Shown: positions 3,243 to 22,328 of the stretch, one piece after another
How the letters are laid out: each line of letters opens with the position of its first letter
Position numbering within the stretch: position 1 is the first letter of the stretch
Assembly (NCBI GenBank): GCA_036625875.1
Contig: JAZKSW010000005.1
Coordinates: forward strand, 1 to 24,229
From: Minisyncoccota bacterium
GTDB taxonomy: Bacteria > Patescibacteriota > Minisyncoccia > Minisyncoccales > JAZKSW01
Length of the DNA stretch: 24,229 bases
Direction: 5' to 3'
The notes under the pieces: model-generated
What the model was told of the DNA's origin: nothing
The model's database searches: none
Seen by the model: only the letters and a program-made list of their open reading frames with translations
Position numbers and translations under genes: made by a program

Positions 3243-3283
3243 TTTATTATTTATTATTATATAGGCGGTTAATAGAAAGTAAC

Positions 3284-3410
3284 AGCCCCTGGGCTGGGGG
3301 CAGGAGACTTTTTCGGCCGGGTAATCCGGTGTAAAAGATGCTCTCCATACGGAGTATCGTCTGGATTATTCCTCAAAAAGACTCTGGCATTCCCCCCAGC
3401 CCAGGGGCTG
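3284..3410. other. GC-rich structured element: an 18-bp perfect closing stem around ~91 nt containing sub-hairpins. Candidate structured ncRNA or miniature inverted-repeat element; class unknown
   Basis: 3284-3301 (CAGCCCCTGGGCTGGGGG) is the exact reverse complement of 3393-3410 (CCCCCAGCCCAGGGGCTG). A second inner helix pairs 3305-3314 GAGACTTTTT with 3375-3384 AAAAAGACTC (9/10). Internal hairpins are CCGG-GTAAT-CCGG (3318-3330) and CTCC-ATAC-GGAG (3344-3355). It forms a strongly GC-rich island inside an otherwise AT-rich dnaN-ruvB intergenic spacer. Confidence 0.35.
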
Positions 3411-3419
3411 CTTACATTT

Positions 3420-4685: not shown

Positions 4686-6026
4686 TTAGTTGTTTTGAAT
4701 CTTCTGATTGATAAGGTCAATCTCCTCAGATAATCCATCTTCTTTACCCAACTTTTCTTCAATTTTTTCACAGGCATAAATTACCGTTGTGTGATCCCTA
4801 CCTCCAAATCTGTCTCCAATAGAAGGATAAGAATTGTCCAATTTTTCCCTTAACAAATACATTGCTACTTGTCTTGGCTTCACTACTTCTCTCTTACGTG
4901 AAGAAGAGGATAATTTTTCTTCATCTATTCCATAAAAATCAGCTACGGTTTCAACGATTTGTTCCGGATTAATTGGTTTTTTAGAAGAATAGGTGAAGTT
5001 TTTAAGAAGGGATTTAGCAACTTCTAAGTCAGGCGTTTCATTGTTAAGTTTTTTATATGCTACTAATTTATTCAAAGCTCCTTCTAACTCTCTGATGTTG
5101 TCTTTCACATTGGAAGCAATATAATCCAAGATCTTATCCGGGATTGTAATTTCCCCCTCCTTCATTTTTAGTTCCAGAATAGCCATCCTGGTTTCATAAT
5201 CAGGTAAGCTAATATCCGTAATCATACCGCCCTCAAAACGAGACCTAAGACGGTCTTTTAATGAAGAAATTGCTTTGGGGGGACGGTCCGAGGATAAAAC
5301 TATTTGGTTATCCTTTTCGTAAAGGACGTTGAAAATATGAAAGAACTCCTCTTGTGTTTTTTCTTTTCCTGATAAAAATTGAATATCATCAATTATTAAG
5401 GTATCGACATCCTTGAAGTTAGATTTAAACTCTTGGATCTTTTGGTTTTTGATTGAAGATACTACACCGGACGTGAATTTTTCTGCAGAAATGTATTTTA
5501 TTTTCTTATCTTCAAAATCTTCTCCGACTCTGTTTCCTATTGCTTGTAATAAATGGGTTTTTCCCAAACCAACTCCTCCGTAAATGAAAAGGGGATTATA
5601 AACGGAACCTGGTTCTTTTGCTACTGCCCACGCGCCCGCATGCGATAATTCATTAAAAGAACCCACCACAAAATTTTCAAAAGTATAGCGAGGATTTAAG
5701 TTGGTTTCTTTATCTAAATCAAAATCATCAAACTTCAATTGTTCTTCTTTAACGCTAGGGTTAGAGGCTTGACTTGTTTCTGAAGAATCTACCTTGTAGT
5801 CTACATCTTTAATATCAGGATCAAGATTGTGTAGTATTTTTAATATCTTTTTATGATATTTGTTTTCTAGCCACTCCTTAGTAAAATTATTAGGTACAGA
5901 TACCGTTAATTGGTCATCTTCTCTAGAAGATATTTTCGTTTTCTTGAACCAAGTAGCAAAGTTAGCTGGAGAAGTATTAAACTGGATTTGGGCTAACACT
6001 GCTTCCCACAATTCCTCTTTATTCAT
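4686..6026 (-). CDS. dnaA: Chromosomal replication initiator DnaA
   Basis: 446 aa. N-terminus MNKEELWEAVLAQIQFNTSPANFATWFKK (DnaA domain I). AAA+ Walker A NPLFIYGGVGLGKTHLLQAIGN. Walker B LIIDDIQFLSGKEKTQEEFFHIFN. C-terminal DNA-binding helix-turn-helix VAMYLLRE...S...IGDRFGGRDHTTVIYACEKI. Confidence 0.95.
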   Translation of the reverse strand: MNKEELWEAVLAQIQFNTSPANFATWFKKTKISSREDDQLTVSVPNNFTKEWLENKYHKKILKILHNLDPDIKDVDYKVDSSETSQASNPSVKEEQLKFDDFDLDKETNLNPRYTFENFVVGSFNELSHAGAWAVAKEPGSVYNPLFIYGGVGLGKTHLLQAIGNRVGEDFEDKKIKYISAEKFTSGVVSSIKNQKIQEFKSNFKDVDTLIIDDIQFLSGKEKTQEEFFHIFNVLYEKDNQIVLSSDRPPKAISSLKDRLRSRFEGGMITDISLPDYETRMAILELKMKEGEITIPDKILDYIASNVKDNIRELEGALNKLVAYKKLNNETPDLEVAKSLLKNFTYSSKKPINPEQIVETVADFYGIDEEKLSSSSRKREVVKPRQVAMYLLREKLDNSYPSIGDRFGGRDHTTVIYACEKIEEKLGKEDGLSEEIDLINQKIQNN

Positions 6027-6328
6027 GGTTATAACTAAATAGGAGGTTAAAGTTTATAAAAGAATACAGAACTTTGTTTCTTTTGTTTCTACTTTAATTT
6101 TAACACATCCTGAAAAAGTTTCCACACCCCCAAACAACCTTTATTTATGTTTTTTGTGTATAACATGAGGAAAATTTGTTGATCAATTTTGGATTAATTG
6201 GTAGTTTTTAGAACATTGTAATCAGCAAAAATTTACGTTAAACTGAATAAGGTGCTTCTATTTTCTCGCTCGCTTCAGAAATATAAATAAACAATTATTT
6301 AATTTCCTTGCTCGCTCGTAATTATAAG
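6027..6328. promoter_or_regulatory. dnaA-rnpA divergent intergenic region; candidate oriC / dnaA promoter region with a few DnaA-box-like 9-mers and an AT-rich stretch
   Basis: TGTGTATAA at 6156-6164 is 8/9 to TGTGGATAA. GTTTCCACA near 6117-6125 is the reverse complement of TGTGGAAAC, 7/9. An AT-rich run spans 6130-6165. Box density is modest and I cannot compute GC skew, so this is only a candidate. Confidence 0.3.
6262..6328 (+). promoter_or_regulatory. rnpA promoter/leader module, copy A of a duplicated ~55-nt leader element
   Basis: TTCTCGCTCGCTTCAG-AAATATAAATAAACAATTATTTA-AATTTCCTTGCTCGCTCG-TAATTATAAG-ATG. The 23-nt core at 6278-6300 is identical to 15100-15122 on the opposite strand. 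It contains a -10-like TATAAAT at 6281-6287. Confidence 0.45.
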
Positions 6329-6697
6329 ATGCTGCCTAAAGATAATAGACTCAAAAAGGAAAAAGATTTCGAAAGGGTTTTTAAAAAAGGAAAGAGCTAC
6401 AACCAAACCTTTTTATTTTTGAAGGTTCTAAAAAGAGATAACAACCAAGAAAGTCGATTTGGTTTTGTAGTATCTACTAAGGTTTCAAAGAAGGCAGTAG
6501 TTAGAAATAAATTAAAAAGACAATTAAGAGAAATAATAAGAGAGAAGTTACCGGAGATTAAGTCCGACTATGATGCAGTAACAGTTGTTCAGCCCGGTAT
6601 TGAAACTCAGTCTTTTCATCAACTCAAGCAAAATTTACTTCAGCTTTTAAAAGAAGCGAATTTAATAAAAGATGAATCCATTAATCAAGATAATTAA
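6329..6697 (+). CDS. rnpA: Ribonuclease P protein component RnpA
   Basis: MLPKDNRLKKEKDFERVFKKGKSY...FGFVVSTKVSKKAVVRNKLKRQLREIIRE carries the RnpA RNR motif (R.RN..KR..RE). I prefer the ATG at 6329 over the in-frame TTG at 6308 that the ORF track used. No rpmH is detectable upstream. Confidence 0.85.
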   Translation: MLPKDNRLKKEKDFERVFKKGKSYNQTFLFLKVLKRDNNQESRFGFVVSTKVSKKAVVRNKLKRQLREIIREKLPEIKSDYDAVTVVQPGIETQSFHQLKQNLLQLLKEANLIKDESINQDN

Positions 6698-6875
6698 ATT
6701 TTATCAAGAATACATAACTCCTTATACGGGGAGACATTGTCGTTTTTATCCTACGTGTTCCCAGTATTCAATTACAAGTTTAAAAAAGTACGGATTTTGG
6801 AGGGGTTTATGGAAATCAACAAAGAGAATTAGCAGATGTCATCCTTGGAATAAAGGAGGAATAGATCTCCCCTGA
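6672..6875 (+). CDS. yidD: Membrane protein insertion efficiency factor YidD
   Basis: 67 aa. YTGRHCRFYPTCSQYSITSLKKYGFWRGLWKSTKRISRCHPWNKGGIDLP matches the YidD signature (CRF.PTCS.Y.......G...G......RI.RCHP...GG.D). Overlaps the rnpA 3' end by 26 nt. Confidence 0.85.
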   Translation: MNPLIKIIKFYQEYITPYTGRHCRFYPTCSQYSITSLKKYGFWRGLWKSTKRISRCHPWNKGGIDLP

Positions 6876-6900
6876 AACTTTTTTGGCTAAAAAAGTTTCA
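6873..6900. repeat. AT-rich perfect palindrome (12-bp arms) TGAAACTTTTTT-GGCT-AAAAAAGTTTCA, copy 1 of 2. Possible bidirectional terminator/attenuator or protein-binding palindrome
   Basis: Left arm 6873-6884 and right arm 6889-6900 are exact reverse complements. The left arm begins with the yidD TGA stop. It is followed by CACAAAAAAA. A near-identical element lies at 22249-22274. Confidence 0.5.
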
Positions 6901-6945
6901 CAAAAAAACGTATACAAATCGTAAATTAACTAATTATTATTTTCC

Positions 6946-7674
6946 ATGAACATATTTATTCAAGCATTTAACGTAATTTTATACCAGCCACTATTTAATG
7001 CACTGATTTTTCTTTATCAGGTTATTCCCGATTTTGGAATAGCCGTAATTGCACTTACGGTTTTGATAAGGTTGCTACTTTATCCTTCTACTGCTAAGTC
7101 CATTAGATCTCAACAAGCAATGTCTGAGATTCAGCCTGAGATTAAAGAAATCCAGGATAAATATGACGATGATAAAGAAAAACAAGCTCAGGAAATGATG
7201 GAATTATACCAAGATAAGGATGTTAATCCTTTTTCCGGTTGTCTACCCTTGCTGGTGCAGTTACCTATCTTAATTGGCTTGTTTAGGGTCTTTTACAGAG
7301 GATTTGGACAGGAGCAGATGAAATATTTATATAGTTTCGTATCCAATCCCGGAGTGATAGATCAGAGTTTCTTGGGATTAGTTAATTTAGCTGAACCGAA
7401 TGCAGTAATGGCTGTTTTAGCGGGAGTATTTCAATTTTTTCAGACTAAAACCTCAACGGCTTCTACTCCGCAGACAGGAGACGATTCCGGATTCGGAGCT
7501 ATGTTCAAGAAACAAATGATATATCTTTTTCCGGTAATAACTGTATTTATTGTTTGGAATCTTCCTTCTGCGATTGCTTTGTATTGGGTTACCACTACAA
7601 TGTTTATGGTCGCCCAGCAGTATTATCTTAAAAATCAGAACTCAGAAGGTGAAGAGGAAACCCAAGAAGATTAA
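6946..7674 (+). CDS. yidC: Membrane protein insertase YidC (short Oxa1-type form)
   Basis: 242 aa, multi-TM. LYQPLFNALIFLYQVIP..GIAVIALTVLIRLLLYP...KSIRSQQAMSEIQPEIKEIQDKY.DDKEKQAQEMMELYQDKDVNPFSGCLPLLVQLPILIGLFRVF is the conserved YidC/Oxa1 core. Confidence 0.85.
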   Translation: MNIFIQAFNVILYQPLFNALIFLYQVIPDFGIAVIALTVLIRLLLYPSTAKSIRSQQAMSEIQPEIKEIQDKYDDDKEKQAQEMMELYQDKDVNPFSGCLPLLVQLPILIGLFRVFYRGFGQEQMKYLYSFVSNPGVIDQSFLGLVNLAEPNAVMAVLAGVFQFFQTKTSTASTPQTGDDSGFGAMFKKQMIYLFPVITVFIVWNLPSAIALYWVTTTMFMVAQQYYLKNQNSEGEEETQED

Positions 7675-7715
7675 CCCTTGCATTTAATAATTTTGTATTA
7701 TAATCTTTAATTACC

Positions 7716-8177
7716 ATGATTGACCAACAACAAACTAATAAAGTTAAGGAAATAATTAAAGGATTCTTAAACCACATGGATCTTGAGGCGGATGTTGAAG
7801 TTGGAAAACCCGATGATGATACCATCCCGGTTGATTTGGAAATGGAAAACCCTAAAACTTTAATTGGTAAAGAGGGGCGAACCTTAGCTAAGGTACAGCA
7901 CTTGCTAAAGCTAATGAGTAGAGATGAAATTGAAGGCCGTTTTTACATTGATTTGGATATTAATAATTACAAAGAAAAAAAGACCTCCTATCTTAAAGAA
8001 AAGGCAAGAGAAGTAGCGGATAAGGTTGCTTTAACTAAAAAAGAGAGACAGCTACCAGCAATGCCTCCTTATGAAAGAAGAGTTATTCACATGGAACTAG
8101 CGGATCGTAATGATGTTACGACTCAAAGTGTGGGGCAAGATCCCGAACGAAAGGTAATTATTAAACCCTATGAATAA
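7716..8177 (+). CDS. khpB: Jag/KhpB (EloR)-family RNA-binding protein with KH and R3H domains
   Basis: 153 aa. KTLIGKEGRTLAKVQHLLKLM (KH-like) and YERRVIHMELADRNDVTTQSVGQDPERKVIIKP (R3H motif). Gene order follows the usual rnpA-yidD-yidC-jag arrangement. Confidence 0.8.
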   Translation: MIDQQQTNKVKEIIKGFLNHMDLEADVEVGKPDDDTIPVDLEMENPKTLIGKEGRTLAKVQHLLKLMSRDEIEGRFYIDLDINNYKEKKTSYLKEKAREVADKVALTKKERQLPAMPPYERRVIHMELADRNDVTTQSVGQDPERKVIIKPYE

Positions 8178-8181
8178 TTTA

Positions 8182-9657
8182 TTAATTTGATTGCCGAAGA
8201 GGAATAATTCCTATACTTCCTATTTCATCATCTTCGGGATAGGTTATGACATTGTGACCTGTTAAATTCGGGTCGCTATTTTTAATTACTTTGCATTGTT
8301 CTTCAAAGGTGAAGGGGTCTATAAAGCTAGTTCCGCCGAACTTATCTTTACCCAACACTACCATAAAACTGCCTTGTATTTCTATAGATAGTATTCTATC
8401 TACAGCCTTATCTTCATCGGGATCATCGGGATCATCATGCACCTTTACGCCTAAATCACCACTTTTAATTGGGTAGTCAATTTCTTCACTCCAGAAGCGT
8501 CTGTCATGCTTATCTTCTATTGTGCTGGCATCTATTGTGAAAAAATCCCCTTCGTGACCTATTTCTTCGTAAAAAGTGACTTTCCCTTTTTTTATTTTTG
8601 ATAACCTAAGTGCAAACGGTGTGATAGATTCTGCTTCTTTGGCACCGAAATCGGACTGACTTGTTAAATCAACTGTTCGGTTTGTGCAAAAGGACATAGT
8701 ACTTCTTCCTCCACCTATACCAGGCGGGCTTCCAGCTGTTGGATCCTGGGGCATAACTCCTTTTACTGTACACTTACCTTTGTAATCGGTTTTGCCATGA
8801 AGTACTGCTCCGTAAGCAATTTCAGGAACCAGAAGGCCATCTTTGTTTTTACATTTCCCGGCACTCTTAAAAACTATTCCCCCAACCTCATTCTTATAAC
8901 CTCCCAAATCATCTTCTTTGCTAAGATAGTGTTGGTAAGGCTCTCCTGGAAAGGCAGCCATAGTACATTTATCAAAAGGATCTGAAGAGTCGTAACCCGA
9001 TTTGGGAGGATTTTTATAAAGATACACCCCCGGTTTGTTATCTTCCAGATAAAATGATTTTAATCCGCTAACACTCTCTTTCTTACCATCTTCTTCCGGA
9101 TCAGTTTTATAGTTACCTTTATAACTACAGCTTCCCTCGTATTTCTTGGAATCAAACCAAAAAGCTCCTTCAATTGCGTCTCTGATGCTCTGAAATTGCA
9201 ACTCCTCTGCCTCAAACCCTTCGGGCAGAGCCTCTTGGCTGTCACTAAAACAACATCTTGTAGAAGAACCGTTTTCGTTCTCTCCGTACAAGCAAATTCC
9301 CTGACTGGGAGTTCCGGGATCCATAGTATTTCTTAACAGTTGTGGATTGATTGTTTGTAGAAGTAAATACGACCCCAGTAAGATAACAATTGCTATTACG
9401 GCTCCCGTTATGTAGCTTTTGGCATCATCAATTCTGCTTCGATTACCTCCTGAAATTAAATACATGAAACCTCCGAACACCAAAGCGCCGAAGACTAATA
9501 AACCTCCGAGCCATAAGGACCACGTGAAAATCTTAGCGATAAGAGAAGATAAGCCACTGCCTCTTCCCAGGATCACACAATTTGCCCCTGTAACTATTGA
9601 AGGGGTAATTAAGGTGATAGTTACCAAGAAGACAATTGTTTTTTTAGTTATTCTCAT
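8182..9657 (-). CDS. Secreted/membrane protein: an N-terminal VirB2/TrbC-like (Patescibacteria 'T4SS pilin'-type) domain fused to a ~380-aa extracellular domain with scattered Cys
   Basis: 491 aa. Signal peptide MRITKKTIVFLVTITLITPSIVTGANC. Two TM segments flank GGFMYLISGGNRSRIDDAKSYITGAVIAIVILLGSYLLLQTINPQL, the GG.Y..SGG.....AK....TINPQL pilin-type pattern, and the upstream ORF shares it. The stop lies 4 nt from the jag stop, with the two genes convergent. Confidence 0.6.
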   Translation of the reverse strand: MRITKKTIVFLVTITLITPSIVTGANCVILGRGSGLSSLIAKIFTWSLWLGGLLVFGALVFGGFMYLISGGNRSRIDDAKSYITGAVIAIVILLGSYLLLQTINPQLLRNTMDPGTPSQGICLYGENENGSSTRCCFSDSQEALPEGFEAEELQFQSIRDAIEGAFWFDSKKYEGSCSYKGNYKTDPEEDGKKESVSGLKSFYLEDNKPGVYLYKNPPKSGYDSSDPFDKCTMAAFPGEPYQHYLSKEDDLGGYKNEVGGIVFKSAGKCKNKDGLLVPEIAYGAVLHGKTDYKGKCTVKGVMPQDPTAGSPPGIGGGRSTMSFCTNRTVDLTSQSDFGAKEAESITPFALRLSKIKKGKVTFYEEIGHEGDFFTIDASTIEDKHDRRFWSEEIDYPIKSGDLGVKVHDDPDDPDEDKAVDRILSIEIQGSFMVVLGKDKFGGTSFIDPFTFEEQCKVIKNSDPNLTGHNVITYPEDDEIGSIGIIPLRQSN

Positions 9658-9662
9658 AGATA

Positions 9663-12257
9663 TTATTCACGAATTAATTCTACACAGAAGAAATTATTCA
9701 TGCCTCCGTTTCTCCCTAAATTCTTAATAGCGTTTTGGCATTTATCACTTTGTTTGTTTGTTAAGCAGGCTTCTTTTTGCTCGTTGGTTAAATCCTTGTG
9801 GCTATAAGGATAACAACTGTTTTGCACATTGGGTAAACTTGGCAAGGAAAACTCGGGAGGATAACAATTATTGTAGTTGGTGATGGGGAAATTAGGTTGA
9901 ATGTCCAGTTGCCCTAATTTTAACAAATCAAGGCCCAAACTACAACTGAGTATACCTTGAAGGTTCATATTTTTTTCAGCCACTCCCCCAAAACCTGTTA
10001 AGCATCCTTTCATTTTATCTCTGCTTTGAGATAGCATAGTTATTAATTCGTGACGGTCAGGATCATCTTTTTTGAGGTCTTTTACTTTTATCAAATCAAC
10101 AATACGATTGAAAGAATTTTTAATTGTTTCTTCAGCTTCTACTACTGTATTTGTCTGATCCTTAATTGCATCCATTAAACAAGGGTTTTCAATTTTGCAT
10201 TTACACTCACAAATATCCGGTCCTGGGTCACAACAGTAGCAATTTTCTCCATCGCTGTCACAACACATCTCACAACATGCACCTTGCCCAACTACATCAC
10301 AATAAGCTTCAGAGTGGTAAGCTCCCCAGTAATCATCCGGATTATTCTGACATCTACAACTTAATGGGAGTACGTAAAGCACAGAAAGATCTCCTTGAGG
10401 CTCATCCTCTAAGTCTCCTGCCGGATCTTCTGGATTGAATAAAGCATTAGTAGCCTTTTCTATTCTATTATTAATATCTTTTAATTTGTTTAAATTTATT
10501 TGGGCGAGTTTTTCTGCATCGTCCGTAGCATCTCCAATGGGGATTAAGCCTCGCGGGTATCTGCTGTCCGGTTCGGGATCTAAAGTGGCTTTTCCCAGCA
10601 AGGGGGCGATAGAACTAGGCACTTTTTCCGAATTAGGATCCGGACAGTAAAAGGTAGCCGGGTCACCGTCTTTTTTCTCACAGGTCTGTTCCGGTTTATC
10701 ACCTTCTTTTTCGTCCTCTATTTTGCATAAAGTACAAGTGGCATCGGTAGTAGTACAAGATGAACTACCGGTTTCATTATTTAATAAATACTCTGAAGGT
10801 TTGCAGGTTTTTATTTCTCTTTTCCCTACGGTTGACGTAGCACAATCTCCCTTTTCAAGTGTATCTAAATCACAATCATAGCAAGGTAGTTTACCTTCAT
10901 CGGTAGTAGTGCAATTTTTAGCATTAAATTCTTTACAGTATTTAGTAGTTTCCACTTTGTTTTCTTCAGAACAGCTGTTTCCCCAAGAAGTTCCGCTTTC
11001 ACAGAAATCTTTTTTCTGCCATTCAGCGGGTCTTTCTTTTTTAGAGAAATAATAATTTGCCTGAGAAATTACAGTTTGGTAAGGACAATCATTTTTAAGA
11101 AAATTTTCTGCTCTTCTAAGATAAGTTAAGTCTTTTTCTAAGTCCTTTTCCAGAGGCTTTAAAAAGTTAACCATTAAAAAACGAACTTGGTCCGCTACCA
11201 ACAGTGGTTCTCCTTCACCGGAGTGATCGTCCGGGTTAATTACAGCTCTTTCGTTAAACTGTTTGGTAGTTAAGTCCTTAAGTTTATCATCGGTGTAATT
11301 CCGCCTAATTTTCTTTCTGTATTCGTCAATTTTATCTCTAAAACCATCACAAGGGTCTCCGTCTTCATAAGGGTCTCCTATGCAACTTTCCAGAGGTTCA
11401 CAGGTGCCCTGCTTGCATGATTTACTATCACAGGTTCCGTCTATGCACTCTCCTTCCACGTTGCAGTATTCAGTAGAACAATCACTTGTTAAATTTTTGA
11501 TTTTTTCAGCCCACTCTCTTAATTTTTCCATTTTCTTGTTCACGGGTTCTTCGAATTTGGTCAGGCAGTCCATTCGGTCATGTTCGGTCATGGGGTCAAT
11601 TTGTTCCGTGTCGGGATTAGCGTCTTTAAAAACAAGTAGTTCATCTTCTTCTATAAAATCATAACAATACCCTTGACGGGCGTCTTTTTGATTGACTAAA
11701 GTATCTACCTCCTTACCATCTTGACAGTCCACCATCGTCTCGTACTTCTCTCCTTTCCGGTAGCAATCTATTTCTTTCGCTAATATTTTTTCGGTTAGAG
11801 TTCCAATGGGAATTTCTTGAAAAGTAGTTGTGGCTTTTACAGTAGAAGGAGGATCGGGTTTAATTGGTGGAGTGGTAGTGGGGCTATCCACGTCAAAAGG
11901 AGTTTCTACTAGTTGGGGGTTAATAGTGGTTAATATTAAGACAGAAGTCAGTAGTAACAGAAGGCCTAAGAAAGCATGACGGGCCGTGTTTTTTGCATTT
12001 TGAATTCTCGTAGCGTTACCTCCCGAAGTTAAATACAAAATTCCTCCATAGATTAAGACTCCGGTTACTATTATAACACCTACGAACAATCCCAAACTAA
12101 AAAGGTAAGTTAAGAGTCCCGTAATACCGGCTCCCGGTTCAGGCTCCTTTACACCCGGAAGGTTGGGATAGTCTACAGCTTGCGCTAAATTAAAAAACCC
12201 TAACCCCAAAGAGATTAAGGTAAGAAGTAATAAAGTTTTATATTGTTTTTTATTCAT
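9663..12257 (-). CDS. Giant cysteine-rich surface protein: an N-terminal VirB2/TrbC-like pilin domain fused to a ~750-aa disulfide-rich ectodomain. Paralog of the downstream gene
   Basis: 864 aa. Signal peptide MNKKQYKTLLLLTLISLGLGFFNLAQA. Pilin-type segment LFVGVIIVTGVLIYGGILYLTSGGNATRIQNAKNTARHAFLGLLLLLTSVLILTTINPQL. The rest is extremely Cys-rich (CxxC/CC/CxC clusters, e.g. CCEMCCDSDGENCYCCDPGPDICECKCK) with D/E/K/T-rich linkers. Confidence 0.6.
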   Translation of the reverse strand: MNKKQYKTLLLLTLISLGLGFFNLAQAVDYPNLPGVKEPEPGAGITGLLTYLFSLGLFVGVIIVTGVLIYGGILYLTSGGNATRIQNAKNTARHAFLGLLLLLTSVLILTTINPQLVETPFDVDSPTTTPPIKPDPPSTVKATTTFQEIPIGTLTEKILAKEIDCYRKGEKYETMVDCQDGKEVDTLVNQKDARQGYCYDFIEEDELLVFKDANPDTEQIDPMTEHDRMDCLTKFEEPVNKKMEKLREWAEKIKNLTSDCSTEYCNVEGECIDGTCDSKSCKQGTCEPLESCIGDPYEDGDPCDGFRDKIDEYRKKIRRNYTDDKLKDLTTKQFNERAVINPDDHSGEGEPLLVADQVRFLMVNFLKPLEKDLEKDLTYLRRAENFLKNDCPYQTVISQANYYFSKKERPAEWQKKDFCESGTSWGNSCSEENKVETTKYCKEFNAKNCTTTDEGKLPCYDCDLDTLEKGDCATSTVGKREIKTCKPSEYLLNNETGSSSCTTTDATCTLCKIEDEKEGDKPEQTCEKKDGDPATFYCPDPNSEKVPSSIAPLLGKATLDPEPDSRYPRGLIPIGDATDDAEKLAQINLNKLKDINNRIEKATNALFNPEDPAGDLEDEPQGDLSVLYVLPLSCRCQNNPDDYWGAYHSEAYCDVVGQGACCEMCCDSDGENCYCCDPGPDICECKCKIENPCLMDAIKDQTNTVVEAEETIKNSFNRIVDLIKVKDLKKDDPDRHELITMLSQSRDKMKGCLTGFGGVAEKNMNLQGILSCSLGLDLLKLGQLDIQPNFPITNYNNCYPPEFSLPSLPNVQNSCYPYSHKDLTNEQKEACLTNKQSDKCQNAIKNLGRNGGMNNFFCVELIRE

Positions 12258-12258
12258 A

Positions 12259-12564
12259 TTAATCCTGAAGTATCTCCATTATTACGAGAATGGTCCAAAA
12301 TGGTGCAATGTCACCAAGGGCGGGAATTAATTCCCCTCCGGTAAAGCCCATCAGTTTCTTAGCACTGGTTCCACCGAACCCCATACCATCTCCCCTGACA
12401 AAGTAAAGCCAGGATCCTAGAAAGACACCTCCTAACAAATCGGGAATGAAAGAAATGCCGAAGCCTATTCCTACAAAGTCTAGTACTAAACAAGCCAGAC
12501 CTATTAAGTCCAATATCGCAGCCAAAAAGAACATCATAGTGGAACCCGGGCTAGGAAAGCTCAT
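12259..12564 (-). CDS. Small glycine-rich integral membrane protein (hypothetical; possibly a divergent pilin/VirB2-like subunit)
   Basis: 101 aa with two hydrophobic helices (FFLAAILDLIGLACLVLDFVGIGFGISFI ; IAPFWTILVIMEIL) and a G-rich loop GFGGTSAKKLMGFTGG. Tightly packed between virB4 (3-nt gap) and the 864-aa gene (1-nt gap). Confidence 0.45.
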   Translation of the reverse strand: MSFPSPGSTMMFFLAAILDLIGLACLVLDFVGIGFGISFIPDLLGGVFLGSWLYFVRGDGMGFGGTSAKKLMGFTGGELIPALGDIAPFWTILVIMEILQD

Positions 12565-12567
12565 ATT

Positions 12568-14409
12568 TTAAAATTCTCCTTGTTCTAACCTACTTTGATT
12601 TTTAGAAGATTGTTGTCCTAACTCTTTTTTGGACTCTTTAATCTTCTTAACTTCTTCCGGAGAGGTGGTAATTATTTGCTCCTCGGCATAAGAAGCTACT
12701 ACTCTTAAGCCAACGTGCTTAGGCCCTGCAAAAAACAACCCTTCTCCTACCGGAGCTTCTAATAGCATTGTTTTTTCTGCTTCAGTTAAATTAAAGGCAT
12801 CTTGAACTGCTTCGGCTCCTGAAGGTGATTGTTTCATTAATAATTGGAGAGAAGAGTTGGTAATAATAGGTTTTCCATAGTCCGACTTCATGAAATCAAT
12901 CACATCTTGAGTAATAGTGGTAACTCCAAGCCAATATTTTCTGCCTCTTTTAGCTGTGCCGAATAGGAAGGAGGCTCCATCTTCGTTCTTCATCATCCAC
13001 CATGCTTCGTCTACCACTAAAATTCTTTTCTTGAGTTCAGCTCTAATAGTGTTCCAAATGTAGCGCATAATCATGAACATGGCCATCGGCCTTAATTCAT
13101 CTTCCATGTCTCTAATACCGAAGGTAACGAGATTATTATCCATTTCTACGTTGGTCGGATTATTGAAGAATTCAGAATAACTACCTTCGGTGAATTTTCT
13201 TAATCTCCTGACAAGTGATTCTGCTCCTTCCATCGTTTCCAAAACAGATTGAAAGTCTTCCATTAGAGGGGTTCTTTCGTCCCATAAAGAGGGGTCGGTT
13301 TCGGGAGTAATATCCCGAGCGCGATAAGTTTCGGTTAGAGCTTGATCTATAATTGCATCTTCCTCGGCATTAAGTCCGCCAAGCATTATTCTTAAAAGCC
13401 CTACTAAATTAATAATATTGCTTCTCAACACGTCTGACGGCCTTTCGTTTTCTCTCGGTGGAGGGAGGTCAAAAGGGTTAACATGGTTAGGGGAAGTCAA
13501 AGACATATTGTAATAAGAACCTCCTACTGCGTCCGACAGGAATTTATATTCGTTTTCGGGATCGATTATGATAACATCCGTTCCCATCATTAAGGATCTT
13601 AAAATTTCTAGCTTCTCGAAGAATGACTTTCCGGATCCGGCCTTACCGAAAACAACCGAGTTCGCGTTTTCTAAAGAAAAGCGGTCGAACAATACCAAAG
13701 AATTATTATGTTTGTTAACTCCGTAAAGAATTCCCTCATTGGAGCTTAGATCAAAGGAAATAAACGGAAAGGCACTGGATAACGGGGCAGTATTCATGGG
13801 GTTGGTTACTCCCAATTTATCAGTTCCGTAGGGAACGGAAGACAAAAAGCCCTTTTTCTGTTGAAATAAAGCTGGCTTAGGATAAATCATCCGGGATTCC
13901 AAAATAGATCTTAGCCGGGTTTCCGAACTGTTCAAATCTTCTTTGCTTTCTCCGTAAACGGTGATATAGAGTGAGAATTGAAACATCTTTTCCCTGGCGG
14001 TCTGTAATTTATCTCTCAATTCTTCCAGGTCTTGGTAGGCAGTTTCCAGTTCAGGACTTCTTACTAATCCTTTCTCTTCTCTTTCGGCAATTTCTGATTG
14101 AACCTCTGCTGTTCTTTTTCTCAACTTTTTAAGAATTTGTTCTGAATCTTCAGGATGAATAAACATTGAAACATCCATCGGGGTGTCCATGTTGATTACG
14201 GGAGACAACCAGCCCGTACTCAGATAACGGGGATAGGAAAATACGAAGAAAGATTTAACATATCTTTCTCCTAATTTAATATTATCCTCGCTGACTTTAA
14301 TCGAAGCCGGAGCGGCTATATCTTTAGCTCCAATGGGCCGAGTCTGGAAAACCTGCTCCGGTATTTTTTCTCCTCTATTGAGTAATTTGTCCAAAAAAGG
14401 AATCTTCAT
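12568..14409 (-). CDS. virB4: VirB4/TrbE-family T4SS ATPase, C-terminal ~3/4 (middle domain plus ATPase domain)
   Basis: 613 aa. Walker A VVFGKAGSGKSFFEK. Walker B RILVVDEAWWMM. The N-terminal part YVKSFFVFSYPRYLSTGWLSPVINMDTPMDVSMFIHP aligns to the VirB4 mid-region (YVGSIYSF.EYP....PGML..L.SLDFPLVLTQSFSFL in A. tumefaciens VirB4). The ATG overlaps the upstream ORF's TGA (ATGA). Confidence 0.85.
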   Translation of the reverse strand: MKIPFLDKLLNRGEKIPEQVFQTRPIGAKDIAAPASIKVSEDNIKLGERYVKSFFVFSYPRYLSTGWLSPVINMDTPMDVSMFIHPEDSEQILKKLRKRTAEVQSEIAEREEKGLVRSPELETAYQDLEELRDKLQTAREKMFQFSLYITVYGESKEDLNSSETRLRSILESRMIYPKPALFQQKKGFLSSVPYGTDKLGVTNPMNTAPLSSAFPFISFDLSSNEGILYGVNKHNNSLVLFDRFSLENANSVVFGKAGSGKSFFEKLEILRSLMMGTDVIIIDPENEYKFLSDAVGGSYYNMSLTSPNHVNPFDLPPPRENERPSDVLRSNIINLVGLLRIMLGGLNAEEDAIIDQALTETYRARDITPETDPSLWDERTPLMEDFQSVLETMEGAESLVRRLRKFTEGSYSEFFNNPTNVEMDNNLVTFGIRDMEDELRPMAMFMIMRYIWNTIRAELKKRILVVDEAWWMMKNEDGASFLFGTAKRGRKYWLGVTTITQDVIDFMKSDYGKPIITNSSLQLLMKQSPSGAEAVQDAFNLTEAEKTMLLEAPVGEGLFFAGPKHVGLRVVASYAEEQIITTSPEEVKKIKESKKELGQQSSKNQSRLEQGEF

Positions 14410-15077
14410 TGGTTAAAATTTGATTGAGTTACTCTTTGTTGTTGATTTTGTTGAGTTATCTCGGGAGGGATTTCCGGGTAATAACCTACCTCTGCTCTAC
14501 GTGGATGATGGATGCTCCAGAATAACTCTATTATTTCCGGAGTGGTGAGGGGTACGGCTTTTAAACTACACCTTCTCAACCCCAACGCTACGAATTCCAT
14601 TCTTTGCCACAGTTGCCTTTTTGCTCTTTGGAATTTTTGCTCCGTCATTTTATGTCTTTTTGGCATTTTTCCTCCCGACTTTCGTTGTGCTTCTCTCAAA
14701 GTGTAGGGTACAACTACAAAGAAATTCTTTGACATAATGGTGTTTTTTTGTACCGTTTTATCTATAAACTTACGGTAACTTTCGGTCTGTGTTTGTAGTA
14801 ATTCATTATCTTGTTCCTTTTGTAGTTGTTCTAATTTATCTAAATAACCGGTAATGTTAAGCTGTCTGGATTTAAGATAAATTTGCAGAGGAAAATCCAG
14901 AGAGTTCAGCATTTCTTGAAATTGATAGATAATCGATTTTTTCTGGTCCGAAGTCTTTAGAGCAAAATTTAAAGAATTAACCATTAAAATACCCCTTAAT
15001 GCTTTGTTTTTCAATATGACTACTCCTTCTCTGACTTGATCAAATTTTAGAAAGTCTTGAGTTGCAGCTTCAGGCAT
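14406..15077 (-). CDS. virB4: VirB4/TrbE N-terminal segment encoded as a separate, translationally coupled ORF (split virB4)
   Basis: 223 aa. VREGVVILKNKALRGILMVNSLNFALKTSDQKKSIIYQFQEMLNSLDFPLQIYLKSRQ follows the VirB4 N-terminal pattern (I.LL.DGS..I.RI.G..FEL........F..LL......V.IY.HL.R). It ends in a TGA that overlaps the ATG of the 613-aa ORF. Combined length is ~836 aa, typical for full-length VirB4. Confidence 0.6.
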   Translation of the reverse strand: MPEAATQDFLKFDQVREGVVILKNKALRGILMVNSLNFALKTSDQKKSIIYQFQEMLNSLDFPLQIYLKSRQLNITGYLDKLEQLQKEQDNELLQTQTESYRKFIDKTVQKNTIMSKNFFVVVPYTLREAQRKSGGKMPKRHKMTEQKFQRAKRQLWQRMEFVALGLRRCSLKAVPLTTPEIIELFWSIHHPRRAEVGYYPEIPPEITQQNQQQRVTQSNFNQ

Positions 15078-15145
15078 ATTTGTGAACGAGTGAGAAAATT
15101 AAATAATTGTTTATTTATATTTTTGAAACGAGGAAGCAAGCGAAC
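15078..15145 (-). promoter_or_regulatory. virB4 promoter/leader module, copy B of the duplicated ~55-nt leader element (inverted relative to copy A)
   Basis: The minus strand reads GGTTCGCTTGCTTCCTCGTTTCA-AAAATATAAATAAACAATTATTTA-ATTTTCTCACTCGTTCACAAAT-ATG. The core 15100-15122 is the exact reverse complement of 6278-6300. It sits in a 139-nt gap inside the otherwise overlapping operon, between prgI-like and virB4-N. Confidence 0.45.
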
Positions 15146-15216
15146 CAGCGGTCGCGTAGTGACTGCTACACGACAATTTTCAAGAATTCGAGCGGAGCGA
15201 GAAGTTCTTATAATTA

Positions 15217-15633
15217 TTACTTTTTACCTGTTTTAACCTTTGTTTCCATTTCTTTTAATCGACTTTTTTGAGTCATTCTTAAAGGAGATTGTTTAGTATC
15301 GGTTTGCTGTGGTTGCTTCTTTTCTCTTTTTTCAATAATTTTAGGAGTGCTTTGCTTCTTTTTCCATAAGTAAACTTTGGAAGAAAACAAGAACGAAACG
15401 GAATGGAGAATTATCTCTGGCAAAGATTTACCGCCGACAGTGATAAAAGCTAAAGCCATTGCCACTGCAAAAAGAAGAAGAGCGGAGAGCACAAAAGGGA
15501 TTAGAGAGACAGTAAAGTAAAGGACGGCGGAAATTAAACCGGCTACTCCGATATAGGTAAATTGCTTAAAGGTCATCGGGCCTATAATTTTAGGTTCTTT
15601 TTCTATAAATTTTGGGACGCGGTAACGAGCCAT
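15217..15633 (-). CDS. PrgI/TcpE-family (VirB3-like) T4SS membrane protein
   Basis: 138 aa. MARYRVPKFIEKEPKIIGPMTFKQFTYIGVAGLISAVLYFTVSLIPFVLSALLLFAVAMALAFITV matches the PrgI-family N-terminus (..VPKD...EDKIIG.LT.RQ..Y...G, followed by two TM helices). Sits upstream of virB4, as prgI precedes prgJ. Confidence 0.65.
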   Translation of the reverse strand: MARYRVPKFIEKEPKIIGPMTFKQFTYIGVAGLISAVLYFTVSLIPFVLSALLLFAVAMALAFITVGGKSLPEIILHSVSFLFSSKVYLWKKKQSTPKIIEKREKKQPQQTDTKQSPLRMTQKSRLKEMETKVKTGKK

Positions 15634-16052
15634 TACTCAATTGATTCTCTATATTTATCTTTAGATGCTTTATCTTGTTGATTGGTTTGTTCCGGCTCTT
15701 TTGCTCCTTGTGGTTTTTGAGTTGGTTTTATTTCCGTTCCGTACAAAGCTGATAAGGTATCTCGTATTGGCATGAGAATAAACCGGTTAATTTCACGATA
15801 GATACTTCTAACTTGCTTTGCACTGAGTTCCAAGTCTTCTTTCAAGGTTTGTTTAAATTCTTTAGGGGTAAGTAATCCCATCAACACCTGACCGGTATAT
15901 CTAGCTACCTCGGAGTTTTTATCTACTCCCGCTCTTTCACACGCCTGTTTAATACGTTCAGCGGTGTCAGGTGAAAAAATAGCCTCCTGAAGTTCTTCAG
16001 GTAGTTTTTCATATACATCCCATAATTCATCTTTGGAATATTTCTTAGCCAT
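15633..16052 (-). CDS. Hypothetical soluble protein, first gene of the T4SS-like operon
   Basis: 139 aa, hydrophilic, no TM (MAKKYSKDELWDVYEKLPEELQEAIFSPDTAERIKQACERAGVDK...). Its stop overlaps the prgI-like start (TAATG). I recognise no family. Confidence 0.45.
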   Translation of the reverse strand: MAKKYSKDELWDVYEKLPEELQEAIFSPDTAERIKQACERAGVDKNSEVARYTGQVLMGLLTPKEFKQTLKEDLELSAKQVRSIYREINRFILMPIRDTLSALYGTEIKPTQKPQGAKEPEQTNQQDKASKDKYRESIE

Positions 16053-16122
16053 GTTTAACTGCCTTTATTTTAACAAAAAACGTTGGGTTATAAAAGTGGA
16101 GAAGCAGGAGAAAAGGTTAAGG

Positions 16123-16151
16123 TTGACAAATTATGTATTAATTAATATAAT
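16123..16151 (+). promoter_or_regulatory. Consensus sigma70-type promoter (TTGACA-17 nt-TATAAT) driving the SPFH-domain gene
   Basis: TTGACA at 16123-16128, a 17-nt spacer, then TATAAT at 16146-16151. A second TTGACA at 16198-16203 is followed by the RBS AAGGAG at 16213-16218. Confidence 0.55.
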
Positions 16152-16226
16152 ATGGATAACAATAGAAAGTTATTCTCTATTGGATATATTCTTTGGTCTT
16201 TGACATTTATATAAGGAGTGATAAAA

Positions 16227-17801
16227 ATGTCTCCCTCTCAAGAAGAACAGTTTTTTACGTTTCTATTGGTGTTGAGTGTTATTGTTTTGTCAATTATGTG
16301 GTTATTCCAAGCACCGACTGCTTGGGAGTTACGATTTGGCTGGTGGTCAGTGCTGGCCTTGATAGTTGGAATTTCTAGTGTTTTGATACTAGCCATGAAT
16401 ACGGCTTGGAAACACCTTGCAATTGTTCTCGTAGCTGCCGGTGTATTTTTCGGGGTTTATCTTCTGCCCTTCTGGCTACAAATTTGCCTGATGATAGTAG
16501 GAGGTTCTGTAAGTTTATTCTTTTCCGTTTATTACGGATTAGCCGAAAACAACAGATGGTTTACCAAACTCGAAGAAGGACAAGCTAAATTCGTAATGAA
16601 AGCGGGTCGATACGTAAAGACTTTATTCCAATGGGAAGGACATACTTTAGATGACGAAGGAAACGTAGTGCCCCTAGGAAAATACACGAGAAACGGAAAA
16701 GTAATAGAAGAGTTCGAAGAGCTAGAAGATGATATGCCAATTGAGGCGAAATATCTTGCCGAAATGGATCGCTTTAGCTTTTCAAGGGCTAAAAAATTTA
16801 GGGAACGCATAGAAAATCAAGGTATAGACAACTTGGAAGATTTAAGGGAAGCAGCCAGTGAAGGAAGACTTGCCGAAGAAGTTAAAGGAATAGGAGAAGT
16901 AACGCAGGATGAAATTCATAGGATAATTGAGTCAAAGAGAGGTACTTATTATGAACCTTCCCTAAAGGCGGTTACTAAGCAAGGCAAAGAGGCAGATACT
17001 TCTTCTAAGGCGGACAAAGTAATTACTACCTATGACGAAGTAGCAAACCCTGCCGGTAGTGATGATATTTTCCGGCAAGACAATAGAGACTTTTATCGTG
17101 GAGGTGGACTTAGATTTTTCAGTCCCTATTACCCTCTGTATGAAGTGAATACTTACAAGTTTTCTTGGGCGGCTCTTAGTCAAGACGGAGAAGTGAAGAT
17201 ACACAAAAATGAAGAACTTGATTACATATTAGTACAACCTGATTTATATTATTTCCAAGTGACGGATGCAGAGGATGAAGATCTTTTACCTCTAGGTGCT
17301 GAAGTGACCGTGAGAATTAGAGTTGTCAATCCCAAAAAGGCAATGCTAGTTCCCGAAAATTGGCTTGAAATGGTGATTAATTTAATTCGTCCAGCAATAA
17401 GAAATTCTTTGAGCTCCGAGAAATACAAAAATCTTACTGGTCAATACGAAGATCTCAGTGAAGACATTTTCGCTACGATTGTCAGTAGTGGGTTAATAGA
17501 CCAGCTTGAGGAAGACTACGGCGTACAAGTAGAAAGACTGGACATAAAAAATCTTGATCCACCGGAAGATTTGAGAGAAGCTACTTTGAAGGAAGCTATA
17601 GCCGGCTATGAGGCAGATGCAGCAAAAACAAGAGCGAAAGGAGAGGCTGAAGCGAAGAAGATAAAGTACGAAGCGATTAAAGAATACGAGCCCATTTCAT
17701 TGACCGTAGAAGGAATAGAAGCAGCAAAAGAATCAAATCCATACGTTATCACTCAAGGTTTACCGGGACTTGTTGATGCTATGAAATCCCTTAAAAATTA
17801 A
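16227..17801 (+). CDS. Polytopic membrane protein with a C-terminal SPFH/band-7 (HflK/C/flotillin-like) domain and a helix-hairpin-helix-like motif
   Basis: I prefer the ATG at 16227 (8 nt after AAGGAG) over the track's GTG at 16218. About 4 N-terminal TM helices. The SPFH pattern GAEVTVRIRVVNPKKAML...MVINLIRPAIRNSL...DYGVQVERLDIKNLDPPEDLREATLKEAIAGYEADAAKTRAKGEAEAKKI resembles V.V..RV.DP.KA / G..V..V.I.DI.PP.E....M.....AER...A...AEGE. A possible HhH lies at IENQGIDNLEDLREAASEGRLAEEVKGIGEVTQDEIHRII. Confidence 0.68.
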   Translation: MSPSQEEQFFTFLLVLSVIVLSIMWLFQAPTAWELRFGWWSVLALIVGISSVLILAMNTAWKHLAIVLVAAGVFFGVYLLPFWLQICLMIVGGSVSLFFSVYYGLAENNRWFTKLEEGQAKFVMKAGRYVKTLFQWEGHTLDDEGNVVPLGKYTRNGKVIEEFEELEDDMPIEAKYLAEMDRFSFSRAKKFRERIENQGIDNLEDLREAASEGRLAEEVKGIGEVTQDEIHRIIESKRGTYYEPSLKAVTKQGKEADTSSKADKVITTYDEVANPAGSDDIFRQDNRDFYRGGGLRFFSPYYPLYEVNTYKFSWAALSQDGEVKIHKNEELDYILVQPDLYYFQVTDAEDEDLLPLGAEVTVRIRVVNPKKAMLVPENWLEMVINLIRPAIRNSLSSEKYKNLTGQYEDLSEDIFATIVSSGLIDQLEEDYGVQVERLDIKNLDPPEDLREATLKEAIAGYEADAAKTRAKGEAEAKKIKYEAIKEYEPISLTVEGIEAAKESNPYVITQGLPGLVDAMKSLKN

Positions 17802-20108: not shown

Positions 20109-20213
20109 TGCCTGATTATAAGCAAAGCTTGAAATTACTCGCTCCCCTCAAAAGATTAAAATAAGTGAACCATTTTAATTTTCTTACTCACTCGTGATTA
20201 TAACAAAAAAATA

Positions 20214-21050
20214 TTAGGAGGACAATTTAATAAATTGCTTAGTTAGTTTTATCCATTCGTCATTGGTTAAAGTTTCTGCTCTTCTGCCCGGTTCAATGTT
20301 GCTTTTTTTAAGTATTTGCTTTAATCCATTTTTGTTAAAGCTTAATTCTAATTCTAAGCTGTTAATCAGTTTCTTACGGGAGTGAGCGAATCCTCCTTTC
20401 ATTACCTTGAAGAATGCTTGGTTGAAATTTTCTTTTCTGTATTTATGGTTTAAAGGTAAAATATCGGTGATTTTCAGAATAGAAGAATTAACTTTCGGTT
20501 CAGGAAAGAATTCCTGCTTGGAAATACTGCCTGCTATTTCAGGATTACTGTAAAATTGGATGGCAGAGGCTACTACGGTCATTTCCGGAGGATTGGTAGT
20601 TATTTTCTCCGCTACTTCCTCTTGGACGGTCACCGCCATTAAGTTAGGAGTTGATTCTTCCAGGATTTTTCTAATAATAGCAGTAGCGGCATTAAAGGGT
20701 AGGGAGCTTACTACCTTGTAATTTTTAAAGTGGGAAAGGTCTAACTCTAAAAAATCTTCATTAATCACCTCTACATTATTTAAATCACAAGTCTGGTTTA
20801 GAATTTTTACCAGGCGTGAGTCGCGCTCCACTGCTGTTACCTGTTTTACTTTTTCTGCTAATTCCTTGGTTATGGTTCCTAAACCGGGCCCTACTTCCAA
20901 TACGTGATCGTTCTTTCTCAAGTCAGCAGTACCCAAAAGTTTGTTTAGAGCTACTTTTGAGGTTAAAAAATTCTGTCCTTGGTTCTTGTCGGCTCTGATG
21001 TTGTGTTGGGCCAGTAGTTCTTTAATTTTTGCTTCTGAAAGTAAATTCAT
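20214..21050 (-). CDS. rsmA: 16S rRNA (adenine1518-N6/adenine1519-N6)-dimethyltransferase RsmA/KsgA
   Basis: 278 aa. GQNFLTSKVALNKLLGTADLRKNDHVLEVGPGLGTITKELAE is the KsgA signature (GQNFL...., SAM-binding LE.GPG.G.lT). Confidence 0.9.
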   Translation of the reverse strand: MNLLSEAKIKELLAQHNIRADKNQGQNFLTSKVALNKLLGTADLRKNDHVLEVGPGLGTITKELAEKVKQVTAVERDSRLVKILNQTCDLNNVEVINEDFLELDLSHFKNYKVVSSLPFNAATAIIRKILEESTPNLMAVTVQEEVAEKITTNPPEMTVVASAIQFYSNPEIAGSISKQEFFPEPKVNSSILKITDILPLNHKYRKENFNQAFFKVMKGGFAHSRKKLINSLELELSFNKNGLKQILKKSNIEPGRRAETLTNDEWIKLTKQFIKLSS

Positions 21051-22221: not shown

Positions 22222-22245
22222 GAGCACCACTTTCAAATGGTGCTC
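22222..22245 (+). terminator. Hairpin downstream of the M23 peptidase gene (GAGCACCA-CTTTCAAA-TGGTGCTC); probable terminator together with the adjacent palindrome
   Basis: 8-bp perfect stem, 8-nt loop, located 24 nt after the stop codon. Followed by CTC and the AT-palindrome at 22249-22274. Confidence 0.4.
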
Positions 22246-22248
22246 CTC

Positions 22249-22274
22249 TGAAACTTTTTGGACAAAAAGTTTCA
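22249..22274. repeat. AT-rich palindrome TGAAACTTTTTG-GA-CAAAAAGTTTCA, copy 2 of the element at 6873-6900
   Basis: 12-bp arms. It has the same 5' context (CTCC/TCT before TGAAAC) and 3' context (CACAAAAA) as copy 1. Lies between the convergent peptidase and dksA-like genes. Confidence 0.5.
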
Positions 22275-22328
22275 CAAAAACTTAATATAGACAACAAACC
22301 TATACCATGAACTTAATTCATGGCTTTT

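Follow-up and report, generated by a model that had tools for sequence, protein, structure and literature searches.

The window, i.e. the whole stretch of DNA analysed here, is the complete 24,229-nt contig of an NCBI MAG (Candidatus Paceibacterota bacterium). Its gene layout was obtained from Pfam scans, and one conserved non-coding block upstream of rnpA is listed with the genes:

4686-6026, minus strand: dnaA, in a group with ruvB and dnaN (Pfam scan)
Between dnaA and rnpA: intergenic region of 302 nt
6216-6244, plus strand: native promoter-like block of rnpA, TTGTAA-17 nt-TAAACT, invariant columns in a five-way alignment
6329-6697, plus strand: rnpA, followed by yidD, yidC and jag (Pfam scan)
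Minus strand: type IV secretion-like cluster including pilin-like genes (Pfam scan)
12568-14409, minus strand: VirB4/TraG P-loop ATPase, 613 aa
14406-15077, minus strand: separate TraC-like N-terminal ORF, 223 aa (PF26593, TraC-like)
15217-15633, minus strand: prgI, with one further ORF after it

The gene rpmH, the usual predecessor of rnpA, is absent both in the window and in its relatives. In the secretion-like cluster, prgI and the traC-like gene are separated by a gap of 139 nt. The VirB4/TraC split (14406-15077 and 12568-14409), with the two ORFs overlapping by ATGA, occurs in all relatives examined and is thus a stable feature of gene organisation rather than the result of a frameshift. 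A GC-rich patch located between ruvB and dnaN (3278-3415) contains a perfect 18-bp inverted repeat (3283-3300 and 3393-3410) around an interior of 92 nt, and looks like either a structured RNA or an element bounded by terminal inverted repeats (TIRs). In Rfam this patch gives only a meaningless miRNA match (E ~0.02), and it contains no tRNA or tmRNA.

The Shine-Dalgarno (SD) sequence is missing from most genes in the window, and several of them carry a TATAAT-like word 6-13 nt before the ATG. Some of these boxes, 6-13 nt 5' of the start, are perfect or near-perfect, for example CTTATAATCAGGCA-ATG of a 741-aa gene (window 20100-20125), and a site matching the consensus at 12 of 12 positions, TTGACA-17-TATAAT, is located at 16123-16151. 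The placement of the TATAAT words suggests that leaderless or very short-leader transcripts may be widespread in this organism.

A sequence-only reading of this DNA had described a 23-mer (AAATATAAATAAACAATTATTTA) that is present once before rnpA and once, inverted, before the virB4 segment. The 23-mer does occur exactly twice and in inverted orientation; its first coordinate was off by one, and the two positions are 6279-6301 on the plus strand and 15100-15122 on the minus strand. The perfect identity extends to 27 nt (6279-6305, plus, and 15096-15122, minus). The flanks are similar as well, as had been noted, with 64 nt aligned at 81% identity by a repeat finder (6262-6325 vs 15076-15139). 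Among 100 dinucleotide shuffles none contained any 23-mer match, allowing up to three mismatches. The suspicion that the core could be a common low-complexity AT word is not borne out, as the 20-mer core is rare in both genomes and metagenomes. We found 35 single matches in 596 Gb (185,579 species genomes), all of them unrelated by their flanks, and 68 loci in metagenomes, where the flanks are shared in L089 only.

Each of the two sequences is located just 5' of a start codon and reads toward its gene (rnpA, ATG at 6329; the traC-like gene, ATG at 15077). The second does lie in a non-coding gap, as reported, and occupies the entire 139 nt between prgI and the traC-like gene. With profile and covariance model (CM) searches, the pair can be described as two copies, A and B, of a longer unit, and a third, diverged copy (E) is found in the same window. 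The features are:

6247-6323, plus strand: copy A, 77-nt short form (ATAAGGTGCTTCTATTT...CTCGCTCGTAATT); nhmmer E=6e-20, CM 76.3 bits
6265-6276, plus strand: box 1 of copy A (CTCGCTCGCTTC), pyrimidine-rich, 5' of the hairpin; conserved in every copy by profile and CM alignments
6278-6306, plus strand: central bulged hairpin of copy A; MFE fold and covariation
6307-6318, plus strand: box 2 of copy A (CTTGCTCGCTCG), a direct repeat of box 1, 3' of the hairpin
15078-15216, minus strand: copy B, 139-nt long form; nhmmer E=6e-19, CM 75.4 bits
15083-15094, minus strand: box 2 of copy B (CTCACTCGTTCA)
15095-15123, minus strand: AT-rich bulged central hairpin of copy B, containing the 27-nt identical core
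15125-15136, minus strand: box 1 of copy B
15151-15174, minus strand: second, GC-rich hairpin of copy B (GTCGTGTAG-CAGTCA-CTACGCGAC); MFE and centroid folds
20118-20199, plus strand: copy E, diverged; nhmmer E=1e-13 to 6e-15, CM 37.5 bits, E=1.8e-6

Copy A ends 5 nt before the rnpA ATG, and these 5 nt are a second ATAAG (6324-6328). Its hairpin has an outer stem of 5 bp, a bulge of 1 nt, an inner stem of 7 bp and the loop ACAA. Copy B spans the distance from the prgI stop codon (15217-15219) to the traC-like ATG (15075-15077). Copy E is located between rsmA (20214-21050, minus strand) and the 741-aa gene (17883-20108, minus strand), with its hairpin at 20152-20182 and TGATTATAA flanking it on both sides. 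It is the only copy that is antisense to its neighbours. In the window, A and E are on the plus strand and B on the minus strand, and all three lie on one side of the presumed origin.

To compare occupied and empty sites, relatives of the copy A locus (L052-L055) were fetched via RnpA, and relatives of the copy B locus (L001-L003) via the TraC-like protein, which in L001 is 89% identical. Looking up the exact DnaA and TraC-like proteins of the window gave no match. The synteny of L052-L055 is the same as in the window (ruvB-dnaN-dnaA, rnpA-yidD-yidC-jag, type IV secretion). In all four of these loci the site of copy A is empty, with ...AAACTAAATAAG directly contiguous with ATGCTGCC. Their dnaA-rnpA spacer is highly conserved and ends with ...TTTACGTTAAACTAAATAAG immediately before ATGCTGCC, while the window has 77 additional bases (6247-6323). 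The site of copy B is empty in L001, where the genes overlap by TAATG (...AAAAAGTAATGCC), and in L002 and L003 (TAATTATG). Since prgI and the traC-like gene abut or overlap in these three relatives, the 139 nt at 15078-15216 are extra. The L001 junction orthologous to that of copy E showed no detectable element.

The same operon holds a second presence/absence polymorphism of a selfish element: in L001 (6987-10823) and L052 (12479-15381) the VirB4-like ATPase is ~1,280 aa long and contains an intein with a LAGLIDADG endonuclease, while the 613-aa ATPase of the window has no intein.

The part of the dnaA-rnpA spacer to the left of copy A (6027-6246) is nearly invariant among the relatives and contains the DnaA-box-like words AAAAGTTTCCACACCCC and TGTGTATAACATGAGG; it is probably an origin and/or a dnaA control region. 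The promoter-like block of rnpA is a consensus match only, with 8 of 12 positions, i.e. under the threshold of our sigma-70 scan. It is kept in the relatives, where its end is 7 nt before the ATG, and this conserved arrangement (TTGTAA-17-TAAACT-7 nt-ATG) suggests that their rnpA transcript could be leaderless. In the window the block has been shifted 77 nt farther upstream by copy A, which would convert a leaderless rnpA transcript to a leadered one.

The two window copies A and B belong to a dispersed family. Profile and covariance searches identified 15 distinct copies in ~125 kb of non-redundant sequence from six related lineages; in the loci that were not ascertained through the element there are 11 copies in 104 kb. 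A covariance model built on the hairpin recovers all 15 copies and nothing else convincing. Copy C, in the metagenomic locus L089, is located between the rpoA stop and the rplQ ATG, and the right half of copy B is identical to that of copy C save one base. Two diverged copies were found by nhmmer, D at the rnpA/yidD junction of L053/L054 and F at the traC-N/virB4 junction of L001. Loci fetched via RpoA added nine copies (L125 five, L124 two, L129 two), including a head-to-tail array of three units in L125 (2622-2855).

The contig L125 (GCA_001549325.1, LHYJ01000001.1; 37 kb) was deposited as 'candidate division MSBL1 archaeon SCGC-AAA382N08'. Its genes include those for bacterial ribosomal proteins and for an RpoA with 81% identity to the L089 protein, and five copies of the element are present; evidently, it is a Paceibacterota-like contaminant of the MSBL1 single-cell assembly.

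The genes downstream of the copies are functionally unrelated (rnpA, rplQ, yidD, virB4, tpiA, fba, rplY, rpsM, PPDK, pfkB). No occupied site is common to two lineages, and wherever a comparison could be made, at least one relative lacks the element. At site F it is missing from the window, L002 and L003, all with the ATGA overlap, at site D from the window, L052 and L055, and at site C from L124-L127. The galT-tpiA, tpiA-RNaseH-like and infA-rpsM junctions (sites G/H, K and L) vary among L124, L125 and L127, and the sites at PPDK, pfkB, fba and rplY (I, J, M and N) vary between L125 and L129.

These comparisons bear on the proposal that the pair is a shared regulatory leader. It stands in so far as A and B are homologous, co-oriented modules directly 5' of genes, and each is part of the upstream leader of its gene. 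A coupling of rnpA to virB4 through a dedicated promoter or operator is not supported: the copies are lineage-specific insertions, both sites are empty in three to four close relatives, and elsewhere the element precedes a dozen unrelated genes. The promoter expected around TATAAAT did not appear either. A sigma-70 scan of 5900-16300 (-35/-10 with 16-18 nt spacing) gave no site at 6262-6328 on the plus strand or at 15078-15139 on the minus strand. The TATAAA of the core lacks the T at position 6, and there is no TTGACA-like hexamer 16-18 nt upstream. The conserved property of the core is its base pairing, seen in compensatory changes, and not a -10 hexamer. Judged from these alignments, A and B are two recent insertions of a hairpin repeat and not a control switch for rnpA and virB4.

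The unit exists in a short form of ~75-80 nt and a long form of ~140 nt. The left end carries the motif ATAAG-nAAGCTTGAAATT, or TCTCACTTCGTTC-n4-CTTCTATTT, and is followed by box 1 (CTCGCTCGyTTC), an A-run, the hairpin, a T-run, box 2 (CTCACTCGTTCG) and a TAAAT or TAATT end. Box 2 is a direct repeat of box 1. No terminal inverted repeats were found, as the ends AAGCAAAGCTT... and ...CTCGTAATT are not complementary, and the sole inverted repeat within the unit is the central hairpin. In the family this hairpin is AT-rich, with an outer stem of 5 bp, a one-base bulge, an inner stem of 5-8 bp and a loop of 4-9 nt, and it lies at a fixed distance of ~21-22 nt from the AUG. The 27-nt core shared by A and B corresponds to the hairpin minus its outermost pair, which is G:C in A and A:T in B and C. 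The long forms (B, J, K, M, N) have an extra GC-rich hairpin of varying sequence near the left end, so that they contain two hairpins, ~20 nt from each end, and the short forms one. In J, K, M and N the GC-rich inverted repeat is at the same position as that of B and differs in sequence; in these four it was identified by eye.

Covariation supports the hairpin. In a MAFFT alignment of eight copies, 96.9% of the cells are paired and 5 of 12 pairs have changed on both sides. None of 500 shuffles was as good, and slid registers gave 32-52% paired. Over all 15 copies, 90.8% of the hairpin pairs are standard. The fold energy of the hairpin shows no excess stability compared with shuffles (z-scores -1.2 to 0), and an argument for a stable RNA structure from energy was for this reason dropped in favour of covariation. 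The assignment of the sense RNA as the folding strand was also withdrawn, given wobble counts of 4 G.U (G.T) vs 5 A.C.

A second small repeat in the window, at 6860-6906 and 22236-22280, is a terminator-like palindrome (TGAAACTTTTT..AAAAAGTTTCA) followed by CAAAAA, with one copy at the yidD end and the other between a convergent gene pair. It was considered as another dispersed family and rejected, as the search gave just the two window copies and none in the related loci.

All copies of the hairpin unit can be written as AT-X-AT, and the empty sites of A, B, C, F and L, the five for which a base-level alignment is possible, contain one AT each. Tandem units are joined via a single AT (TAATT/ATAAG). 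The base after the right-hand AT is a purine in every copy and the G of a start codon in 11 of 15, i.e. 11 of the 15 copies end exactly at the downstream ATG, with the right-hand AT being the AT of the start codon. Fourteen of the 15 read in the direction of the gene downstream (p ~0.001, two-sided binomial test). When the antisense strand of the gene is read, each copy is preceded by (C/T)AT, which is CAT in 11 cases; this motif has only 3 nt and can equally be described as an AT duplication. The AT of the start codon is favoured even where AT-rich spacers offer other AT (sites L, K, H), a preference that purifying selection would not fully explain.

Four of the copies (B, C, D, F) are at formerly overlapping stop/start junctions. 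Since X starts with AAG, an ATGA overlap becomes A-TAA-G...ATG, and both the upstream stop and the downstream start are preserved. The stretch repeated at the junctions is 2-9 nt long, in DNA that is AT-rich and with an AT duplication that is short, and this variable microhomology is compatible with template switching or illegitimate recombination too. A target duplication of 5 bp or of 9-10 bp was rejected; it fits A, E, F and L and fails for B and C, and only AT-X-AT fits all. A Correia- or mariner-like TA duplication was rejected as well, as the empty sequence of site C (GTGATGG) has no TA.

On this evidence, A and B probably belong to a previously undescribed family of non-coding, mobile, non-autonomous interspersed repeats in this Paceibacterota clade. 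We infer the mobility of the repeat from its presence and absence among related sequences. A non-autonomous mobile repeat is preferred over a regulatory module because there is no canonical promoter, the core is conserved in its pairing, and Rfam has no match: Rfam 15 gave none on the window at gathering thresholds and only noise at E up to 5. No transposase or recombinase genes were found in the loci examined, and viral scans with the core, box 2 and the left-end motif gave chance matches only. A literature search for repeats of this kind in CPR/Patescibacteria returned nothing relevant.

Such an element would depend on an enzyme acting in trans, with the hairpin and the boxes as its recognition features and the AT core as the joining point. 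One candidate is a strand-specific HUH/Y1 enzyme like those of IS200/IS605 or RAYT, another a serine recombinase that uses a 2-bp crossover. The hairpins, a constant orientation beside a short sequence and the lack of TIRs recall IS200/IS605 or REP biology (PMC5027513), while an AT crossover core would suit a serine recombinase. In a compact and largely Shine-Dalgarno-free genome, perhaps only insertions at stop/start junctions survive; they may do so because the unit opens with a stop codon (A-TAA-G), and its A/U- and pyrimidine-rich end would still allow initiation at the ATG. The unit would then be co-transcribed as a new leader or an intercistronic spacer, and any promoter or regulatory activity would be secondary.

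Tentatively, and with a good deal of doubt, the element may even seek start codons, i.e. a strand- and sequence-specific CPR enzyme might insert the hairpin unit at the AT of ATG, bringing with it its own stop codon and an SD-independent leader. If so, it could colonise even the essential operons of a streamlined genome at junctions where stop and start codons overlap, and would turn leaderless or translationally coupled genes into leadered ones.

Several other explanations were weighed. The element might be a portable promoter or 5'-leader cassette, a 'mobile promoter' like REP2, kept for transcription start and/or as an initiation leader, with its carrier genes co-regulated. It agrees with the 14 of 15 co-oriented copies and the 11 that abut an ATG, with the TATAAAT/GATAAAT-like words that recur in the 5' arm of the hairpin, and with the precedents of REP2 (PMC3184786) and of putative mobile promoters (PMC3488235). 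In copies A, K and L, moreover, the element separates a native promoter-like block from the ATG, which requires an initiation signal that works across it or from inside it. However, the canonical -35/-10 pair is missing on the gene strand in A and B, and it is the pairing that is conserved and not the hexamer, e.g. TGAATAA/TTATTCA in place of TAAATAA/TTATTTA. The occupied genes also differ per lineage, with relatives that do without the element, which means that there is no conserved regulon; several sites are translationally coupled operon junctions, where a promoter is not needed, and copy E is antisense. We regard this explanation as unlikely, and a second one as less likely still: a cis-acting RNA hairpin (for example one acting as 5' stabiliser, RNase site or weak bidirectional terminator) that has spread for its benefit to downstream expression. 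Compensatory changes that maintain the hairpin, the conserved bulge, the A-run and U-run at its flanks and the fixed distance of ~21-22 nt to the AUG would be expected for such an RNA, and inside an operon the element should always be transcribed. The fold energies are nevertheless those of shuffles, permissive thresholds give no Rfam match either, the occupied sites are not conserved from lineage to lineage and the wobble test shows no preference for the transcribed strand. All in all this makes a cis-acting RNA function improbable.

The sequence-only reading had also raised the idea that A and B are inverted substrates for homologous or site-specific inversion of the 8.8-kb segment from rnpA to traC. 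Their 27 nt of perfect inverted identity inside 64 nt at 81% would be the substrate, but this length is at the lower limit for RecA-dependent exchange, no invertase gene is nearby, and A and B come from a dispersed family and were not placed as a pair. The gene order of the window is also that of relatives without the repeats, i.e. the arrangement is ancestral, and inversion appears very improbable. Chance likeness of AT-rich DNA, or an assembly artefact, can practically be dismissed. The core is indeed nearly pure A/T, but the shuffles give an expectation of zero matches, the GC-containing flanks are also common to both copies, there are 13 further copies, some from independent assemblies, and the synteny with relatives continues unbroken to either side of each copy. 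Signals of the boxA/nut antitermination type, sigma-54 sites, integron attC sites and CRISPR-like arrays were rejected, as their defining motifs are absent.

Genomes of the candidate phyla radiation have the reputation of being minimal, with little mobile DNA. The present repeat is found roughly every 8-10 kb, at positions that differ between close relatives, and within core operons (rnpA-yidD, rpoA-rplQ, infA-rpsM, glycolysis genes and the type IV secretion cluster). It could serve as a strain-level marker comparable to MIRU typing and as a handle for finding the mobilising enzyme, and it offers a natural experiment on how genes without a Shine-Dalgarno sequence are initiated once a 75-nt leader lands in front of them. 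For annotation it is a warning, as 'promoter modules' shared between genes in such genomes may be selfish repeats and not regulons.

Among known systems, the putative mobile promoters are near-identical upstream regions before non-homologous genes of one genome, a descriptive category obtained via similarity searches (PMC3488235). This is the pattern first noticed here for A and B; unlike that category, the element has defined ends, a covarying hairpin and insertion signatures, and its promoter activity is only putative. MITEs such as Correia, RUP and ERIC are likewise small, non-coding, multi-copy, polymorphic in presence and absence and near gene starts, and some of them carry promoters. They have TIRs and a fixed duplication (TA for Correia), whereas the element has direct-repeat boxes, no TIRs and AT borders.

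REP/REPIN and IS200/IS605-derived elements are centred on hairpins, lack TIRs, insert in one orientation beside a short specific sequence and make no classical target duplication (PMC8049555; PMC5027513). The element, too, is centred on a hairpin and lacks TIRs, and its orientation and its borders may be comparable. Its long forms have a hairpin near each end, as do LE and RE of IS200/IS605; most copies, in contrast, contain a single hairpin. REP hairpins (PMC8049555; PMC5027513) are GC-rich with a conserved 5' tetranucleotide and form inverted doublets beside a RAYT gene. The hairpin of the element is instead AT-rich, its units are single or in direct tandem and never inverted doublets, and there is no RAYT or Y1 gene in the loci examined.

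MIRU are 40-100-bp intergenic units in operons, transcribed with their neighbours; relatives can have a filled or an empty site, units may follow one another head to tail in tandem, and short direct repeats are found at the borders (PMC3184786). The element is similarly found inside operons, co-oriented and in tandem arrays, with ends that meet the stop and start codons of the neighbours. MIRU are GC-rich, with small ORFs overlapping both neighbours and imperfect TIRs (PMC3184786). The element differs in that its unit supplies a stop codon (A-TAA-G) and abuts the ATG, with no ORF bridging the neighbours, and in its AT-rich covarying hairpin between two pyrimidine boxes, in an unrelated, AT-rich phylum; the two were compared by description.

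REP2 of Neisseria and IR-A/IR-B of Borrelia are multi-copy intergenic sequences with no TIRs and with internal stem-loops, reaching up to the ATG of unrelated genes (Delihas 2011 review, PMC3184786). REP2 is 120-150 bp long and contains a recognisable promoter and a ribosome-binding site, and its genes are co-regulated (PMC3184786). Like REP2, the element has no TIRs and an internal hairpin, lies directly upstream of ORFs up to the ATG and forms a 5' leader. There is no sequence similarity between the two, and the element has neither a canonical promoter nor a Shine-Dalgarno sequence; unlike the co-regulated set of REP2, its occupied sites vary among close relatives and many are inside operons. 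The AT-X-AT borders and the head-to-tail arrays are seen for the element only and are undescribed for REP2. Taken together, the best reading is that the element functionally resembles REP2 and MIRU, which appear to be the closest known repeats in their effect on genes.
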